Origin: a virus | Length of the DNA stretch: 42,384 nt | Direction: 5' to 3' (one strand) | IMG/VR virus record: IMGVR_UViG_3300038318_000271 | Location: 1 to 42,384 of that record | Shown here: piece after piece, positions 1,895 to 38,446 of the stretch | Layout: each line of letters starts with the position of its first letter | How positions within the stretch are numbered: position 1 is the stretch's first letter | Notes under the pieces: model-generated | Told to the model about the DNA's origin: nothing | The model's database searches: none | Seen by the model: only the letters and a program-made list of their open reading frames with translations | Position numbers and translations under genes: made by a program

Positions 1895-2131
1895 ATGAAA
1901 CGGGAGAACGAAGCGAGGCCGGAACCGACGATCGAAACCGCCGCCTCCGCGCTGAGGGCGTCGCTCCTCGCCTCCGCTGATTTGCTCAAACGGCAGAGAA
2001 CCGCCAGACCAGGGGAAGAGCGCATCGCATCCGAATATTCCGAGGGCTACAATCAGGGATATGAGGATGCCTTCCGAGACGCAGCAGAGTTGGTGAAAAC
2101 GTTCGCCAAAGAAAATTGTTCGAACCACTAA
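1895..2131 (+). CDS. Hypothetical small protein
   Basis: 78-aa ORF, last gene of the plus-strand block, convergent with the minus-strand lipoprotein gene. Confidence 0.5.
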   Translation: MKRENEARPEPTIETAASALRASLLASADLLKRQRTARPGEERIASEYSEGYNQGYEDAFRDAAELVKTFAKENCSNH

Positions 2132-3767: not shown

Positions 3768-5200
3768 CGTCTTGTCTCCGCGTTATCTCGCTTCACGGTC
3801 CGGAGCAGGCTGATTAAGTCTGGCCACTCCTTCCCGAGCCCGAGCACGATCTTGCCGCTCGGATACTGTTCGGTCACGGCGACGATCCGGGCCTGCATCG
3901 TAGCAACGCCCGGATACTCGGCGCTCACGATATCGCCCAAATCAAAATCAGTCATGTAGCGGTAGGTCGGGGTCGGGAGATACTCGACCTCCAGGGTCGT
4001 CGTCTCGCCCCGGTCCGCCAGCAGCTCCTGCCCCCGGGCCGTCAACTCGTCAGTCGTCGCAAGGTCCCGGGCGTCGATGTAGACCTCGCGCCGACTCCAC
4101 CCGGTCGCCGTCCCGACCTCGGTGATCGTCCGGAGGTCTGCCTCTCCCTGCCCGGCCACGATCGCCAGGGTCGGGGCGTCCGAGAGGCAGGCCCGGTAGC
4201 CGGCGATCAGGCAGTTGCCGAGCCTCGGAGAGAGCAGGATCTCGGCGGACCGGTCCGCCCCCTCCAGCGCGTCGAAGAGGATCTCGCCGGTGTCAGGGGA
4301 CCAGAGGATGCCCCACCCGAGCCCGGACTGGAGGGCGATGGATTCCAGGATCTCCGGCAGCGATTGGAACCGGGCCCGGACCTGCACCATCGCCCCTCTG
4401 CCCTGGTCAACCAGCATCAGGTCGAGACCCGGGATCGCCCTGTCTGGGTCGGTCGGATTAACCGCGTTTACCTCGACATAGTGGCGCATGGCCGTCTCCG
4501 CGATGGCGTCGATCTGCTCGTCGTAGCCGGTGCCGGCAGAGACCCCGTGCAGGCAGATCCGGTCTTGCAGGATCGCGCCGAGGTCCCGGCCCGCGACCGT
4601 CCACGACTCTGATATCTCTCCCTCGTCGGTCATCTGCCCTTCGATACTCTCGATGGTGCCGACCAGGTGCCGCCCCCGGCGGGGAAGGGAGATGAACCGG
4701 CCTTCCCGGAGTTCGTCTGCCCCCGTCGCATACCGAGAGATCACGGCCTGCCAGGACCCCGGACCCCGCCACCGCCGCGTCCACTCGACCGCCTCGTAGG
4801 CATCGATCACGGCCTTGAGCACGAGCGTGCTCCCGGACCGCTCGTAGACCCGCAACGGCTCCGGCGGGGTGTCCTCAGGTTCGAGCGCCGGCCCGATCTC
4901 CATCTGGAAGTATCCAGCCGCCGGGAGCGTGGTGGCGGTCCCGTCCCCCCAGAGCAGCCGGACCTGCACATTGTAGGTGCCCGGGTGCACAGTATCCTCC
5001 GGGCCGAACGCACAGAGTAGCGCCCCGGTTGCAGCGTCCTCGACGGTCATCGGCTGCCGAATTTGCCAGCCGGAGTACCGGGCATGTATGGCATACAGCG
5101 TCGCCATCACGCCGGCGAGAGGGAGGGGGTCCGCCCCCCGCGACAGGGTCAATCGGTAGAGTGGCCACGTCCCGGCCTGGGCGATGGTGATGTCGGTCAT
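3764..5200 (-). CDS. Tail-associated structural protein (Sipho_Gp37-like) with an N-terminal Ig-like BppU_N-type domain
   Basis: 478 aa. The motif block RWRGPGSWQ...GRFISLPRRGRHLVGTIESIEG resembles the ReqiPepy6 Gp37-like family (from memory). The N-terminal 110 aa are paralogous to the product of 5197..5529. Confidence 0.6.
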   Translation of the reverse strand: MTDITIAQAGTWPLYRLTLSRGADPLPLAGVMATLYAIHARYSGWQIRQPMTVEDAATGALLCAFGPEDTVHPGTYNVQVRLLWGDGTATTLPAAGYFQMEIGPALEPEDTPPEPLRVYERSGSTLVLKAVIDAYEAVEWTRRWRGPGSWQAVISRYATGADELREGRFISLPRRGRHLVGTIESIEGQMTDEGEISESWTVAGRDLGAILQDRICLHGVSAGTGYDEQIDAIAETAMRHYVEVNAVNPTDPDRAIPGLDLMLVDQGRGAMVQVRARFQSLPEILESIALQSGLGWGILWSPDTGEILFDALEGADRSAEILLSPRLGNCLIAGYRACLSDAPTLAIVAGQGEADLRTITEVGTATGWSRREVYIDARDLATTDELTARGQELLADRGETTTLEVEYLPTPTYRYMTDFDLGDIVSAEYPGVATMQARIVAVTEQYPSGKIVLGLGKEWPDLISLLRTVKRDNAETRR

Positions 5201-19403: not shown

Positions 19404-20206
19404 GTTGATGCCCTCCTGCGGTACAGGATGGCGCACCGGCACCCGGGGAACCGGGGGGCGTGCTGGTGGCCACTCGGAAACGGTTCGTCGACCGAGATCC
19501 ATCCCGTCTGCCCGTTCGTCCGACACCCGTCAGAGACCCGGTCGTCGCCGACGGTGCTCCACGACTTTTCCATCTCCAGGCCGACCGCCGCCATCTCGTC
19601 GACGACGAGCCGGTTCCCCTCCTCGTACGCCTCCGCGGCTTCCGTGACCGCGATCAGCTCGGCCCGGTTGCGGATGTGCGCCTGCGGTTTGCCGACGCCA
19701 AACTCTTCGTACTTCGCGACGATCTGCCGGGCGACCTTCTGGTAGTTGTAGCCCTCCTCCATCCCCTGCGTGACGATCCGGGCGATCTCCTCGCGGGTGG
19801 TCGCGTCGATCTCCGTGACCGCAGCGGCCGCACGGTCTTTGATGGCGGCGACCGCCCGGGGGTTTTTGAGGTCGAATGCATAATCGACGCCGAACTCCGC
19901 GACCCGGTGCCGAGCGGCGGCGGCGATAGCTGCTCCGGCCGCCTCCTCGATCGGGCCGGTGAAGAGATCGAGCGTCGTCTGGTAGGCAACTTCGAGTGCT
20001 CCCTCGATTACAGGCGGGATACTTGCCTCGCCGAGGATCCTCGGGCCGAGCCGCTCGAACTCCCGCATGAAGGCGGCCCGGTGTGCCCGGAACGCCTTCG
20101 CCATCTGCCGGGTGAGTTTTGTCTCGATAGGTTTGAGTGCCCGGTCTCGCTTCCAGATCTTCGTCAGGGTGGCGATGTTTTCGAGGAGGTCGCGGAGCGA
20201 GGTCAT
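19400..20206 (-). CDS. Minor head morphogenesis protein (Mu F / SPP1 gp7 family)
   Basis: C-terminal block ELIAVTEAAEAYEEGN...WSTVGDDRVSDGCRTNGQ...HPGCRCAILY-type motif. Lies directly after the portal gene. Confidence 0.8.
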   Translation of the reverse strand: MTSLRDLLENIATLTKIWKRDRALKPIETKLTRQMAKAFRAHRAAFMREFERLGPRILGEASIPPVIEGALEVAYQTTLDLFTGPIEEAAGAAIAAAARHRVAEFGVDYAFDLKNPRAVAAIKDRAAAAVTEIDATTREEIARIVTQGMEEGYNYQKVARQIVAKYEEFGVGKPQAHIRNRAELIAVTEAAEAYEEGNRLVVDEMAAVGLEMEKSWSTVGDDRVSDGCRTNGQTGWISVDEPFPSGHQHAPRFPGCRCAILYRRRAST

Positions 20207-21807
20207 GCCGCCGCCTCCCGGAGGTATGCTTCCAGTTTCCCGATCGCCGTCGCGAGCGCGGCCTCGCTATCCGCCGGCGGCTGCTCCTCACCCTGCGGGA
20301 ACCACTCGTCGACGAGGTCCTGCGCGTTCGGATCCCCGAGCGCATCGAGGAGGAGTTTCGTCAGGTGCCGGACCGGGATCGTGCCGGCGACCGGAGCCCC
20401 TTTGAGCGTGCCAGCGTGGACAATAGCATCGACCATCTCAAGGGGGTCGTGCTGCAGGATCGGCGGGAACTTGACCTCGACTTTGCGATTCATCGGCTCC
20501 CCAGTCTCCGGGTCCTTGCCGAGGGTCACGATCCGGTCGCCGTCATCGTCGATCTCGATCGTCGCACCTGCACGGAGCGGGCCGGATGGCACCATCGCTG
20601 CCTGGTCAACGATGTAGCCGAGGATATTGCCGAGGACCGAGGACCAGAGCGATTGCCGGGCGGTGAACTGGAGCTCCATCGGCCGCTCCATCGATTTGGC
20701 CGTGGCGAGGTTGCCGGTGCTCGGGTCGCCGGTGAGGTAGGGCTCGTTGATGCCGGTCGCCGAGCAGACCATCAGCATCAGCCGGCGGGCGTCGTCCATG
20801 CTCGTGGTGATGCCAGAGGTACGGATCGGTTCCAGTTTCGTGCCCGGTGTCGTGGCCAGGATGCCGCCGACCTGCCCGCCGCTCTGCGCCCGGGCCTCGG
20901 CAAGATTCTGCTGCAGGCTCGGGAGCATCGCCTGGAGTTTGGAGACGGCACCAGTGACGGCCTTCTTGTTCGCGCCGGTGAGCTGCATCGCGAACTTACT
21001 GAGGGCGTCGATGATCGTGACCCACTTTTCGAGGAACACCTTGTAGGCGTTCGCCCAATCGCAGGCCGCGTACATCTCGGAGACGCCGAACTGCATGTCG
21101 TCAAGCCGGTTGACGCTGACGTGGTAGATCGGGGTGTCCGCCCGGACCGGGATGCCGGCGATGTGCGAGGGGTGGCCGCCGGTCGGGTTATAGCGCCAGT
21201 CAGGGTAGTAGGCTTTGTGCTGCTTGACTTCGCTCACACTGGTCGTGGGGTTGTATGTCGTTGAGGTCCAGACGCGGAGGTAGTACCGCGGGTCCTGGGC
21301 GTCCTCGGGGTTGGCGATGATGGCGGCGATCTCGTCGAACGGGATCGTCCGGATCTTGACATGGCCGGTGCTCGGATTGACGAAGAACACGAAGAAGAGG
21401 TTCGCGAAGAGCTGAAGTCCTGTCTCCAGCCGCATCCAGGCTTCGACGTCGCCGAAGACGGTTCGGTTCGTCGGGTCGGTGAGGACCCGCTGCACGACAG
21501 TGTCGACGGTCGGGTGCGTTGCCCGGAGGGTTGCCCCCTGCCCCCACACGTAGAGGCACTGGACGGCGACTGCCCGCTTGATCAACGGGTTCTTGAGCCA
21601 CCTGAGCCTGACCATCTTCGAGAGCGCCCGGAGCCCTTCGCGGCTGAAGTCGCGGTCGCTGCCGCCGATCCGCTGCCACCCCTGCTCGCCGAGCTGATCT
21701 TCCAGGACAGCGAGCCGCTCGGTCAGGAGTTCGTAGTTGTCGAGGACTGCGACGACCTGCTCGGCGAACCGCTGCAGGTCGTGTTGCGGGGCAGCGGCGG
21801 CGCTCAC
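20203..21807 (-). CDS. Portal protein
   Basis: About 534 aa, upstream of the MuF-like gene. Start proposed at the GTG at 21807, preceded by GGAGGGG and GTGA-overlapping the upstream stop. The maximal ORF extends to the ATG at 21930. Confidence 0.8.
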   Translation of the reverse strand: MSAAAAPQHDLQRFAEQVVAVLDNYELLTERLAVLEDQLGEQGWQRIGGSDRDFSREGLRALSKMVRLRWLKNPLIKRAVAVQCLYVWGQGATLRATHPTVDTVVQRVLTDPTNRTVFGDVEAWMRLETGLQLFANLFFVFFVNPSTGHVKIRTIPFDEIAAIIANPEDAQDPRYYLRVWTSTTYNPTTSVSEVKQHKAYYPDWRYNPTGGHPSHIAGIPVRADTPIYHVSVNRLDDMQFGVSEMYAACDWANAYKVFLEKWVTIIDALSKFAMQLTGANKKAVTGAVSKLQAMLPSLQQNLAEARAQSGGQVGGILATTPGTKLEPIRTSGITTSMDDARRLMLMVCSATGINEPYLTGDPSTGNLATAKSMERPMELQFTARQSLWSSVLGNILGYIVDQAAMVPSGPLRAGATIEIDDDGDRIVTLGKDPETGEPMNRKVEVKFPPILQHDPLEMVDAIVHAGTLKGAPVAGTIPVRHLTKLLLDALGDPNAQDLVDEWFPQGEEQPPADSEAALATAIGKLEAYLREAAA

Positions 21808-22283
21808 GGCGTCCCCTCCGCTCTCAGCGTCAGCCAGGCGTAGTATCTCCGGTGCCAGAACGGCACGTCGACCGATCCGCAGAAGCGCGGCCAGAGCGCC
21901 CACAGGAGCCTCTGCAGGGGCGTCTGCCACTCCGCCGTGAGATACTCCATGTCATCCGCCGGCTGCCCGACCGCGTGTAGGAGTTCGTGCCAGAGTCGGA
22001 GGATCACCACGGCATCCGAGTCCTCCGGTCGGACGCGGATGGCTGCCCGGAGATCCATCCCGCCGCCGAGAGCCCGAGCGGGGATCGCGTCGTCGAATAC
22101 GTAGGCGTCGCCCGCGTCGACCGGGAACGGAAACCCGTTCCAAGTCTCGTCGGGGGCAAAGTAGCGGATCTCCGGCGTCCCGGTCCGGACCCCGAACTGG
22201 AAGAACGGCGGAATCTGCGGGAGGAGAGGGACCAACCTCCGCCGCAACGCCTCGGTCTTGAAGTAGATGACAAAGCAGGGCAT
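21804..22283 (-). CDS. Small HExxH zinc-metallopeptidase-like protein
   Basis: 159 aa starting from the ATG at 22283. Contains the motif LWHELLHAVG. The track ORF extension to 22382 runs through the tRNA-like element. Confidence 0.55.
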   Translation of the reverse strand: MPCFVIYFKTEALRRRLVPLLPQIPPFFQFGVRTGTPEIRYFAPDETWNGFPFPVDAGDAYVFDDAIPARALGGGMDLRAAIRVRPEDSDAVVILRLWHELLHAVGQPADDMEYLTAEWQTPLQRLLWALWPRFCGSVDVPFWHRRYYAWLTLRAEGTP

Positions 22284-22297
22284 TATACTCCTCGAAA

Positions 22298-22370
22298 AAC
22301 CGCCGGAGGGACTCGAACCCCCTGCCCCCCGGTTACAGATCCGGCGCGCTGCCGGTAGCGCCTCGGCGGC
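22298..22370 (-). tRNA. tRNA-like gene with a non-canonical anticodon arm
   Basis: Hand fold: acceptor GCCGCCG/CGGCGGU, D arm GCGC-UACCGGCA-GCGC, T arm GGGGG-UUCGAGU-CCCUC. The anticodon arm has only a 4-bp stem CCGG/CCGG with an 8-nt loop AUCUGUAA. Followed by TTTTT. It fills a 95-nt intergenic gap. Confidence 0.5.
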
Positions 22371-22378
22371 GGTTGTGC

Positions 22379-22627
22379 TCATGCCTCGGGCTCCGCCTGC
22401 ACGACCGCGAGCCAGTTAGTCCCGGCTGTGACGATCTCGCGGACCTCGTCCTCGGTTATCTTGCCGTCGTCGATTGCATCACAGATGACGTCGACGGCGT
22501 CCCGGGTCGCGTGCACCGCACGGAGCGCCCTGCGCCCCCACGCCCGGCCTGCGAGCGCGGAGAGGGTAGCGGTCCCGGCGATCGCGGCGACAGGGATGAG
22601 GAGATCGAGGGGGAGTGCCTCAATCAT
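22379..22627 (-). CDS. Small membrane protein
   Basis: 82 aa with an N-terminal hydrophobic helix LLIPVAAIAGTATLSALAG. Confidence 0.55.
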   Translation of the reverse strand: MIEALPLDLLIPVAAIAGTATLSALAGRAWGRRALRAVHATRDAVDVICDAIDDGKITEDEVREIVTAGTNWLAVVQAEPEA

Positions 22628-36223: not shown

Positions 36224-36861
36224 TATGGCGCCTCCATGCAAGCCTTACAGAGCGTTTTGCTCATGAACAACTGCGAGAGTTTCGCCTGTGCCTTGGTCGT
36301 TTCCGCACCGCACCGCTCGCAGATTACGAGGTCGTAAGGGTCAGAGGCCTCCGATTTGGGCGGTGCGGCGGGCGGCTTGATACACGTCATGACCGCTGCC
36401 GCCGCCTGCTCTGCAGGAGTGGGTACTTTTGACGCAGCGACCCGGGCGTTGTGGTCGGCCTGGAGTCGATTGAGATCCGCCGTCAACTTGTCGGCATGCT
36501 GCTGGCGCGAGACGGCATCCGCTACGGGGGGAGCCGGCATCTGCTTAGGGGGCGGAGAGGCCCGATCAAAGGTTGCGGGCGTGGAGGCCTTCGCGGGCGG
36601 CGGGATCGGGGTAGGTGCCCCGACGTCCGGCACCTTGTCGAGCGGCGTCGAGGTGATCGAGGAGACCACCTGCCGCACCGTGAGCCGATCCGCGTCGGAG
36701 GCGGAGTTGGTATACTTGAGGAGTTTGCGGCCGAATATCACGACCGCATCGTCGATATCCCGCTCGGCCTCGATATGCCCGGCGACGGAGATAGTTACAG
36801 AGCCGCCGTTTTCGAGCGGCACCGACGCACCGACGATGATCTCTTTTGGGGCGAAACTCAT
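36223..36861 (-). CDS. Hypothetical protein with Pro-rich linker and C-terminal zinc ribbon
   Basis: Start refined to the ATG at 36861 (ATGA overlap). C-terminal CERCG...CKAC. Confidence 0.55.
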   Translation of the reverse strand: MSFAPKEIIVGASVPLENGGSVTISVAGHIEAERDIDDAVVIFGRKLLKYTNSASDADRLTVRQVVSSITSTPLDKVPDVGAPTPIPPPAKASTPATFDRASPPPKQMPAPPVADAVSRQQHADKLTADLNRLQADHNARVAASKVPTPAEQAAAAVMTCIKPPAAPPKSEASDPYDLVICERCGAETTKAQAKLSQLFMSKTLCKACMEAP

Positions 36862-37748
36862 TCCGACACCTCCCGGAGATCCTGAACCCTTGCAAGGTAT
36901 GCAGTATGGAGGTTCTTGGGGTTCGCGCAGTTGTGCTGCTTGCACTCCTCCGCGACATACCGAGCGACGAGGGGCATAGCCTTCCGAACCTCGAAGAACT
37001 CAGCACCGAGATCGGCGTATGCCTTCTCGATTGCACCAGAGATCTCAGACTCCGGAAGCATCGGGAGCGTCACAACACCCGGCACATCTAGCCGGGGGAT
37101 CTTCTCCAGTTTCGGCGTGTCGTGCTTCTCCTTGAAGTAAACAATGCCGCGTTTGGTGCCTGCCCCTTCGCCACAGTTCCAGGGCGTTTCATCCCAAATC
37201 TTCCCGACAACACCCTCTTTGCCGCGTTCCAGCGCTGCCGTGAGCATCTGGTCTTTGAACTCAAAGAGGGCGTCACGGGTCGCGACGTTGCAGGTGCCGA
37301 TGAGTTCCACGCAGGGTAACCCAAAGTGCCAGCAATGCTGATGCACCTGCGTGTAGTTCATGAACCGGTTGGCCTTCGTGCTCCAGATATCGAACACGAT
37401 GAACTTGTCCCGGTCGTGAGTCTCCATCCCCGTCGGGGATCTGCCCTTCCGGCACAACTCTCCAAAGACGACGTATTCGTCGCCCCATGTCTGCGCGTCG
37501 AACAGGAGATCATAGATGCCTTCGGACTCGTCGGACTCAGAGAACGCGCGGTAGAAGTCCTCTGATGCCTTCGTTTGATTCCGGCTCCGAAGTTGAACCT
37601 GCCCCTCTCCGTCCAGATATGCGCCGATGTTTGACCCGTCCTCTTTGATCGTCCAGTAAATCTCCTTGCCCAGAACGATCTCGGGGTTCGGATACAGCAA
37701 CAGGAGGCGGTCGAGGTGAGGATACTTGATTGAATCTATGTCGATCAT
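36858..37748 (-). CDS. ATP-dependent RNA/DNA ligase (covalent nucleotidyltransferase superfamily)
   Basis: Motif I IKEDGSN, motif III YVVFGEL, motif IIIa FIVFDIW, motif IV EGVVGK, motif V YFKEK. Start at the ATG at 37748 (ATGA overlap). Confidence 0.75.
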   Translation of the reverse strand: MIDIDSIKYPHLDRLLLLYPNPEIVLGKEIYWTIKEDGSNIGAYLDGEGQVQLRSRNQTKASEDFYRAFSESDESEGIYDLLFDAQTWGDEYVVFGELCRKGRSPTGMETHDRDKFIVFDIWSTKANRFMNYTQVHQHCWHFGLPCVELIGTCNVATRDALFEFKDQMLTAALERGKEGVVGKIWDETPWNCGEGAGTKRGIVYFKEKHDTPKLEKIPRLDVPGVVTLPMLPESEISGAIEKAYADLGAEFFEVRKAMPLVARYVAEECKQHNCANPKNLHTAYLARVQDLREVSE

Positions 37749-38446
37749 GCCTGCGCCCCCTTCTGCTCGTTCCACCACTTGCCGAAGCACTCGATACAGA
37801 GCACCTTCGGCGTGTGGGGCCGGGTCTTGTCCCTGATATCCGCAGGCACCGGGACCCCGCAGACCTCGCATGTCGTCGGGGTCGCGGGCGGCACCTCGGA
37901 GACATAACGCGGCTCCGGTCGGTCGCCGGTGTCGATCTCCTCTGGGCTGTACAGGCCGCTGATGCCGAAAGCCCGGCGAAGGGCGTGAGACTCCGCGACC
38001 TTGGTGATCATCGTCTTCGGCTTCTCCCGCCAGAATTTCGTGACCTCACCCTGCTTGTTACGCTGGATGTACTCGGCGAATGGCACCTCGACGACGAACG
38101 GGTGCGACATATCCTTCCGGTAGACCTTGCACCAGCCGATGAGTTCGCCGTTCTCGTCCAGCCGGGTCCCGGACTCCATGCCGTCAAAATTACCGTTCCG
38201 GTGTGCGATCGCGATGAATCCATCCCTGCCGCAGAAAATCGCCGCCGGTGCGTTGGGATACTTGACCGCCCAGATCTGTTTTGCGAACGGGTCTAGGCCA
38301 TAGGTCCGCGAGAGCTGCATCAACAGGAGGAACTCGTTATCGGTGCAGTCCCGGGCGCACATGTCCCGGATCAGCTGGATCTGCTGCTGATTGTACTGCG
38401 CCGGGACGATACCGCCGGCGCCAGTGGTCGCGGGTAGGTCTGACAT
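37745..38446 (-). CDS. recT: RecT/Bet-family single-strand annealing recombinase with C-terminal zinc ribbon
   Basis: LDPFAKQIWAVKY...CGRDGFIAIAHRNGNFDGMESG...KPKTMITKVAESHALRRAF. Confidence 0.85.
   Translation of the reverse strand: MSDLPATTGAGGIVPAQYNQQQIQLIRDMCARDCTDNEFLLLMQLSRTYGLDPFAKQIWAVKYPNAPAAIFCGRDGFIAIAHRNGNFDGMESGTRLDENGELIGWCKVYRKDMSHPFVVEVPFAEYIQRNKQGEVTKFWREKPKTMITKVAESHALRRAFGISGLYSPEEIDTGDRPEPRYVSEVPPATPTTCEVCGVPVPADIRDKTRPHTPKVLCIECFGKWWNEQKGAQA

Follow-up and report, generated by a model that had tools for sequence, protein, structure and literature searches.

Within the virus genome analysed here (the whole stretch of 42,384 bp, hereafter the window) lies a 73-nt element predicted to fold as a tRNA with an anticodon loop of eight nucleotides instead of seven, and the question that it raises is whether the virus possesses a tRNA evolved to read four bases, a working tRNA of the usual kind, or a damaged copy of one. 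The window genome is complete, carries direct terminal repeats (estimated completeness 100%) and is in parts ~84% identical at the DNA level to Methanoculleus virus Blf4/L4768; Blf4 and its relatives are among the few known viruses of methanogens. A single tRNA is predicted in the window by ARAGORN (22298..22370, minus strand; 73 nt), with the label 'tRNA-???' and the four-base anticodon (ctgt). The Rfam tRNA model RF00005 aligns to the same interval end to end (model positions 1-71) with a score of 35.7 bits (E = 5.6e-4), above the gathering score of 29 bits that is its cut-off. An earlier reading of this DNA, made before any search was run (the sequence-only reading), had placed a virus-encoded tRNA-like gene in this gap between two genes and had named ARAGORN and covariance models as ways to check it; both now recognise a tRNA here and agree on its coordinates. 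By comparison with its relatives the element is an aberrant allele of a tRNA-Thr(UGU)-family gene, identical at 68 of 73 positions to the canonical allele of loci L003-L006.

Three of the four arms are regular. Numbering the tRNA such that position p corresponds to window coordinate 22371-p, we find on the minus strand a 7-bp acceptor stem with a G1.U72 pair, a GCGC/GCGC D stem closing an 8-nt D loop (UACCGGCA) that contains G18 G19, and a 5-bp T stem, one pair of which is G.U, closing the loop UUCGAGU, all as the sequence-only reading had drawn them. The conserved elbow bases (G18 G19, U54 U55 C56 and A58) are all present, the discriminator is U73, and CCA is not encoded. The same reading had remarked on A8 and U14 in place of U8 and A14, and these assignments are correct. 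It had also described a T5 tract following the gene; the run exists (22295..22299, minus strand), but its first two T belong to the tRNA itself, as positions 72 and 73, and only three come after the discriminator. The relatives have C72, then TTTT.

The element lies downstream of an 82-aa gene (22379..22627, minus strand) whose product is 78% identical to Blf4 gp09 by tblastn. Overlapping the TGA stop of this gene (22379..22381) is an ATG (22380..22382) from which a chance reading frame, 21804..22382, runs through the tRNA. The possibility that the tRNA region is translated as an N-terminal extension of the downstream gene was considered and rejected. That gene, P0002 (21804..22283, minus strand), encodes a 159-aa protein with an HExxH motif, and 17 of 17 P0002 homologs in IMG/VR align from residue 1, the Met encoded at 22283. 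A GAGGAG box resembling a ribosome-binding site (22288..22293, minus strand) stands 4 nt upstream of this ATG, and at loci L007 and L037 the equivalent Met comes directly after the stop of the preceding gene. These three observations identify 22283 as the true start of P0002, and the tRNA region is thus untranslated, as had been assumed earlier. The corresponding frame of Blf4 also reads through the tRNA without a stop, terminates at the portal start and connects to nothing, and the pattern of substitution across the tRNA is one of RNA-pair covariation. Beyond P0002 lies a portal-like gene (20203..21807, minus strand), homologous to Blf4 gp10 with 82% identity over gp10 residues 3-535; it begins with a GTG (21807) that overlaps the stop of P0002.

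P0002 itself had no match to Pfam or PHROG families, and neither Blf4 nor the closest relatives of the window virus have it. Its motif reads HELLH, and the gene occurs at 17 IMG/VR loci (L081-L097). Its position relative to the tRNA varies: 3' in the window and in L010, 5' in L086, and at L007 and L037 it is found with no tRNA at all. In this it behaves like a mobile cassette of the tRNA/portal junction. The 7-nt sequence ATGAGCA flanks the tRNA and its spacer on both sides in Blf4 and the closest clade, covering the gp09 stop on the left and the portal start on the right (L001, about 4906..4912 and 4805..4811, minus strand; L003, about 1973..1979 and about 2074..2080). This pattern suggests that the tRNA may have been inserted into an ancestral ATGA-coupled gp09/portal junction, which would explain the chance ATG that opens a frame across it.

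The window tRNA belongs to a family that had escaped annotation. In Blf4, the 97-nt gp09-gp10 gap holds a canonical tRNA-Thr(UGU) that scores 62.3 bits (L001 4828..4900, minus strand, corresponding to about 5102..5174, plus strand, of NC_074642.1). The RefSeq record NC_074642.1 lists 63 CDS and no tRNA feature, and the word tRNA is absent from the paper that describes Blf4 (PMC8540584). Among the 36 IMG/VR loci and six genome loci retrieved in a portal-protein search, a tRNA-Thr(tgt) stands immediately upstream of the portal gene at 13 IMG/VR loci and at two MAG-binned loci (three if L045, which is the L039 copy retrieved again, is counted). The window tRNA occupies the same place as in Blf4-like viruses, on the same strand, with the gp09 homolog on one side and the portal gene on the other, from which P0002 separates it as an extra gene. 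The viral tRNA-Thr(UGU) family is previously unannotated, and the window copy is a new, damaged member of it. Two of the loci examined (L040 and L042, JAKOVA01 contigs) are Blf4-like viral contigs binned into an 'Actinomycetes bacterium' MAG, one of them bearing the portal gene along with the tRNA-Thr; their assignment to this MAG is probably mistaken.

To compare members we used a gap-free alignment (A1) of 17 viral copies, 13 of them distinct, and the host tRNA-Thr(UGU). In A1 the cloverleaf accounts for pairing in 97.3% of cells, with double changes at 12 of 21 pairs, including all five of the anticodon stem. None of 500 shuffled alignments scored as high on any of five measures, and sliding the register reduced pairing to 40-56%. 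The covariation of the cloverleaf indicates that the family is a real tRNA whose structure is under selection. The window copy keeps the anticodon UGU, A37, A38, U73, C2-G71 and C3-G70 of this alignment.

Two further features of A1 concern positions outside the stems. At position 33 (window 22338), 16 of the 17 viral alleles have C, in loops reading CCUGUAA or UCUGUAA, and the host tRNA-Thr(UGU) has U; L010, with the loop AUUGUGA, is the sole viral allele with U33. U33 is near-universal in tRNAs, and C33 is unusual for an elongator. From its distribution, C33 could be a loop change specific to the family, for example one that provides escape from a host tRNA nuclease. The 8-14 pair (window 22363 and 22357) is U-A in the Blf4 clade, A-A in L013, L014, L039 and L010, and A-U in the window, L003, L008 and L086, and U-U is never seen in A1. 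Judged from these states, this looks like a tertiary pair that may have been swapped by way of an A-A intermediate.

The host tRNA-Thr(UGU), which is identical in three Methanoculleus genomes, has the length and layout of the viral family. Host and viral tRNAs have in common G1-C72, C2-G71, C3-G70 and U73 and are otherwise clearly different; the window has G1.U72 in place of the G1-C72 of both. In Haloferax volcanii U73 is a threonine determinant, and recognition by ThrRS generally uses acceptor-stem pairs together with anticodon bases (PMC9976931). An origin by recent capture from a host, or as an attP copy of one of its tRNAs, was examined and rejected, as no chromosomal near-copy was found in 26 Methanoculleus genomes: chromosomal matches were limited to 15-29 nt (E >= 0.03), and the sole near-copy lay on a viral contig binned into a MAG. 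By rough, ORF-based counts the codon ACA occurs 7.1 times per 1000 codons in the window, 6.3 in Blf4 and 3.9 in a host sample of about 16,000 codons, that is, ~1.7-fold more often in the virus, which fits the codon-supplement role usual for viral tRNAs.

What sets the window allele apart is its anticodon arm. The 5' strand of the stem, CCGG (positions 27-30; 22341..22344, minus strand), is identical in A1 to that of L003-L009 and together with A31 (22340) forms the CCGGA strand of the closest relatives. The 3' strand, CCGGG (positions 39-43; 22328..22332, minus strand), is of the type found in L086, and the closest relatives have UCCGG here. The two strands can be paired in two ways. In the standard register, the one used by Rfam, the loop is the 7-nt UCUGUAA, and G29.G41 and A31.C39 are left unpaired. 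In a register slipped by one base, a perfect CCGG/CCGG stem closes the 8-nt loop AUCUGUAA (22333..22340, minus strand), from which ARAGORN reads 'ctgt'; UGU lies at 22335..22337 and CUGU at 22335..22338 of the window, minus strand. Calculated inside the cloverleaf, the slipped register (-31.8 kcal/mol) is favoured over the standard one (-27.0 kcal/mol) by 4.8 kcal/mol, and with the other three helices held fixed it takes up ~0.56 of the ensemble as against <0.01, predictions that take no account of modifications or tertiary contacts. The 4-bp stem and 8-nt loop of the sequence-only reading are thus borne out as the energetically favoured register. A canonical tRNA has a 5-bp stem, a 7-nt loop and U33; in the standard register the window copy has G29.G41, A31.C39 and C33. 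When folded without constraint, moreover, the minimum-energy structure of the window copy is not the cloverleaf (-36.7 versus -33.3 kcal/mol), unlike that of L003 or L086, for which it is. The folding energy of the window copy was no better than that of shuffled sequences (z = -0.46), a comparison that is uninformative for a sequence so rich in GC; that the element exceeds chance is established by its covariance-model score and its orthologs, and folding energy forms no part of that case.

Comparison with the closest clade indicates how this arm may have arisen. The portal proteins of this clade are 90-93% identical to that of the window, and its eight contigs carry a single tRNA allele with the strands CCGGA and UCCGG, the loop UCUGUAA, a 5-bp stem and a 7-nt loop, which scores 56.9 bits. 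Of the 11 alleles scored, that of the window is the weakest, at 35.7 bits, 21 bits below this nearest normal relative. The window matches the clade over about 85 nt that end at the end of the anticodon loop, and the identity takes in the last ~72 nt of the upstream gene. Past the loop, 5 of 35 tRNA positions differ (39, 41, 44, 50 and 72), and by a simple calculation the chance that all five changes would fall in this 35-nt part at a uniform rate is ~0.002. In the spacer after the tRNA 5 of 12 positions differ, after which comes the non-homologous HExxH gene P0002, the marker of the foreign side of the junction. In the portal gene the sequence is again homologous to that of the clade, and a sliding identity profile there is mosaic, without a clear breakpoint for the right-hand junction.

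The second strand type is found in L086, which has a fully compensated anticodon stem of the other kind (CCCGG/CCGGG; 54.6 bits). The window stem thus combines the 5' strand of the clade type (CCGGA) with the 3' strand of the L086 type (CCGGG); C39 is common to the window and L086 only, and G41 is common to L086 and the Blf4 clade. Two pairs half-switched on one and the same strand, beside a foreign block, fit a crossover within the conserved loop and are unlike what stepwise compensated evolution leaves behind. Among the records searched, near-identical ones apart, the 8-nt arm is seen in the window only, and the other 16 viral alleles each combine a 5-bp frame with a 7-nt loop. Exact-pattern scans for the arm, for its core (in metagenomes), for the 3' half and for the loop with the 3' strand returned only L086 and unrelated chance matches, and no donor with the exact 3' half of the window was found in them, so that the case for a crossover is made from allele types and not from a traced source.

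Other members of the family bear on whether such exchange is exceptional. All four gametes are present at 23 of the 91 informative site pairs within the gene. L014 (1779..1851) has a Blf4-type 5' T-stem strand facing a clade-A-type 3' strand, with the mismatch C50.U64, and six alleles (L013, L015, L017, L022, L039 and L040) have C5 facing A68 in the acceptor stem; these seven also look chimeric. Recombination inside the tRNA gene is, as far as these site patterns indicate, common in the family. The window genome encodes a RecT recombinase (37745..38446, minus strand; PF03837, 9e-34).

Lesions and losses are frequent as well. L007 and L037 have no tRNA, and at most other loci with a P0002-like gene there is none nearby. 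L008-type alleles, recovered in three samples, have C28.U42 and G54; L010 lacks the GG of the D loop and has A55; L018 has U58, and L039 has C55. By our own count on A1, only 5 of the 13 distinct alleles show neither a mismatch nor a change at a universal position. From this distribution the viral tRNA-Thr family looks dispensable and often damaged.

Taken together, these observations lead us to think it likely that the window tRNA is a recombination-damaged copy of an accessory tRNA-Thr(UGU), hypomorphic or dead, and not an evolved four-base decoder. The family gene lies in the late operon of these tailed viruses and has no promoter-like box of its own, and so is probably co-transcribed with the genes that flank it. 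The tRNA would then be excised by host RNase P and tRNase Z and, since CCA is not encoded, would receive its CCA from the host. The G1-C72, C2-G71, C3-G70 and U73 that it shares with the host tRNA predict charging by host ThrRS, and the charged tRNA would read ACA, a codon commoner in the virus than in the host sample. The window copy appears to be a chimera that follows the clade allele through the end of the loop and a diverged stretch thereafter, on into the HExxH gene. CCGGA would thereby have come to face CCGGG, with loss of pairs 29-41 and 31-39, and the helix would re-pair one step out as CCGG/CCGG. The most likely cause is recombination of two viral alleles with its junction in the conserved loop. 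The most likely outcome is an RNA that may still be processed, given its intact acceptor, T and D arms, and that would decode badly or not at all, from an allele on its way to loss.

Several points count against parts of this account. Three point changes, or a deletion, an insertion and a transition, would give the same sequence as a crossover, and at the proposed junction the two allele types have a common core of only some 7 nt. G1.U72, G50.U64 and G44 preserve pairing or are neutral, as in a tRNA still under selection. The damage, too, may be partial, in that with its acceptor, D and T arms intact the RNA may be made, processed and even charged. Of the four functions that the sequence-only reading had offered (pseudo-tRNA, decoy for anticodon nucleases, frameshift-type tRNA and regulatory RNA), pseudo-tRNA is nonetheless the best fit, in view of the predicted 8-nt loop private to this genome, the mixed stem strands and the 21-bit deficit in score.

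The alternative that survives best is that the window gene encodes a working tRNA-Thr that reads ACA in the triplet frame, its weak stem tolerated or else held in place by modifications, by an A+.C pair or by the ribosome. The element does exceed the Rfam gathering threshold, and it retains the UGU anticodon, A37, A38, U73, C2-G71 and C3-G70. Two of its five private changes preserve pairing as G.U, the virus uses ACA more than the host sample does, and single mismatches occur in other alleles recovered from several samples, so that some imperfection seems to be tolerated. Set against this, two of the five anticodon-stem pairs are lost, the central one to a G.G mismatch, and the register that such a tRNA would need is 4.8 kcal/mol worse and near-absent from the ensemble. 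The minimum-energy fold departs from the cloverleaf that L003 and L086 adopt, the score falls 21 bits short of that of the sister allele, and G1.U72 replaces the G1-C72 of host and viral tRNA-Thr. We regard a working triplet-reading tRNA as unlikely on this evidence.

The 8-nt loop invites comparison with SufJ, a Salmonella tRNA-Thr that carries an inserted C31.5 and acts as a frameshift suppressor (PMC4238358). The window tRNA might by analogy be a natural +1 frameshift tRNA or four-base decoder, charged with threonine and reading ACA with a +1 shift at ACA-N or ACAG, and the virus would then recode some of its messages. In the register predicted to be favoured the loop does have eight nucleotides, with the extra base (A31) lying 5' of the anticodon, and CUGU would pair with ACAG. 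The sequence-only reading had listed a frameshift-type tRNA among its possibilities, but nothing in the genome supports it. In tblastn searches with the 63 Blf4 proteins, each homolog in the window matched in a single frame and none was split across frames. Among all ACAG sites in the window, none joins a coding-like upstream frame to a coding-like +1 frame, which leaves no credible ACAG junction. Nor is ACA followed by G avoided in frame: G follows ACA in 33 of 86 cases, compared with 39% G at first codon positions, so that ACA-G occurs at its expected frequency. Among the records searched the enlarged arm is confined to the window genome, its relatives all having 7-nt loops, and unlike in SufJ its stem is cut to 4 bp. 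The few natural tRNAs with odd loop sizes, moreover, are not known to frameshift (review, PMC5009743). That a recombination accident made a natural analogue of SufJ, charged and promoting +1 shifts at ACA-N, would thus be very improbable, as would a SufJ-like decoder of any origin. Were it so, the window would offer a snapshot of four-base decoding arising in nature in a single step.

It is similarly improbable that the element has a role apart from decoding, such as an RNase P/Z cleavage signal that parts the gp08-gp09 message from the one downstream, a decoy or resistant substitute against a tRNA-cleaving host defence, or a source of a small regulatory RNA. The element is embedded in an operon without its own promoter box, its acceptor and T arms are intact, C33 replaces the U33 of the host in every viral allele but one, and the family tolerates lesions at positions important for decoding; differences in the anticodon loop have been put forward as a means by which phage tRNAs evade anticodon nucleases (PMC10264068). 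The covariation of the anticodon stem and the invariant UGU nevertheless point to selection on decoding and not on shape alone, and some relatives do without the element. A further argument against such a role is that no tRNA-Thr nuclease is known in Methanoculleus hosts; no tRNA-cleaving defence is known for this host either. The sequence-only reading had linked the element to tRNA repair through an RNA ligase encoded in the same genome. An RNA_ligase-domain protein is indeed encoded at 36858..37871, minus strand (PF09414, 8e-14; PHROG 548 'RNA ligase'). T4-type viral tRNA repair, however, combines an RNA ligase with a polynucleotide kinase-phosphatase, and a search of the window genome with the one PNK-type kinase family tried (PF13671) gave no match. 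The ligase gene adjoins that of RecT, no Blf4 homolog of it was found by tblastn, and its link to the tRNA is weak.

Also improbable is a sequencing or assembly artefact, such as a chimeric contig of two strains or errors in a G-rich stretch, for although the genome is a metagenome-derived IMG/VR record, the allele occurs in no other record searched and the change adjoins G runs, three of the differences are scattered transitions (44, 50 and 72) and not homopolymer-length errors, the compensated parental alleles would share only ~7 nt at the junction, far below assembler k-mers, and direct terminal repeats close the contig, whose completeness is estimated at 100%.

If the window tRNA is a recombination-damaged copy, as we favour, the '4-base anticodon' reported by ARAGORN is explained by mismatched strands of two alleles, and such a call is not to be counted as a natural quadruplet decoder without evidence of expression and recoding. 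The methanogen viruses Blf4 and relatives carry an unannotated tRNA-Thr(UGU) with real covariation and with C33 in nearly every allele. Its 73-nt gene serves as a recombination junction, with cassettes swapped on either side, and would provide a clean, small example of how mosaic exchange breaks a structured RNA by mixing the strands of compensated helices. Since Blf4 and its host, M. bourgensis E02.3, are in culture, the canonical and damaged alleles can be compared directly.

The window tRNA can be set beside four kinds of known system. With SufJ it shares a tRNA-Thr body and, in its predicted favoured register, an 8-nt loop with an extra nucleotide 5' of the anticodon. SufJ, however, retains a 5-bp stem and owes its insertion to laboratory selection; the window loop would grow at the expense of a stem pair, and its genome has no frameshift to be suppressed. 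Natural tRNAs with odd loops, in yeast mitochondria, some phages and glass-sponge mitochondria (PMC5009743), likewise depart from seven nucleotides, but these are conserved within their lineages, whereas the window has a single such allele among relatives with 7-nt loops. Like the accessory tRNAs of phages (PMC10264068), the viral tRNA-Thr is a single gene among late genes, is patchily present, has a loop unlike that of the host and serves a codon, ACA, that is enriched in the virus; it differs in that the host is a methanogenic archaeon, in having gone unannotated in Blf4 and, in the window, in its broken anticodon stem. With tRNA pseudogenes of phages the window copy shares a low covariance score, mismatches in a stem, further lesions in its sisters and loss in its relatives. 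Unlike them it passes the Rfam threshold with three of its four arms intact, and its decay appears to be driven by recombination between alleles and not by point mutation alone.
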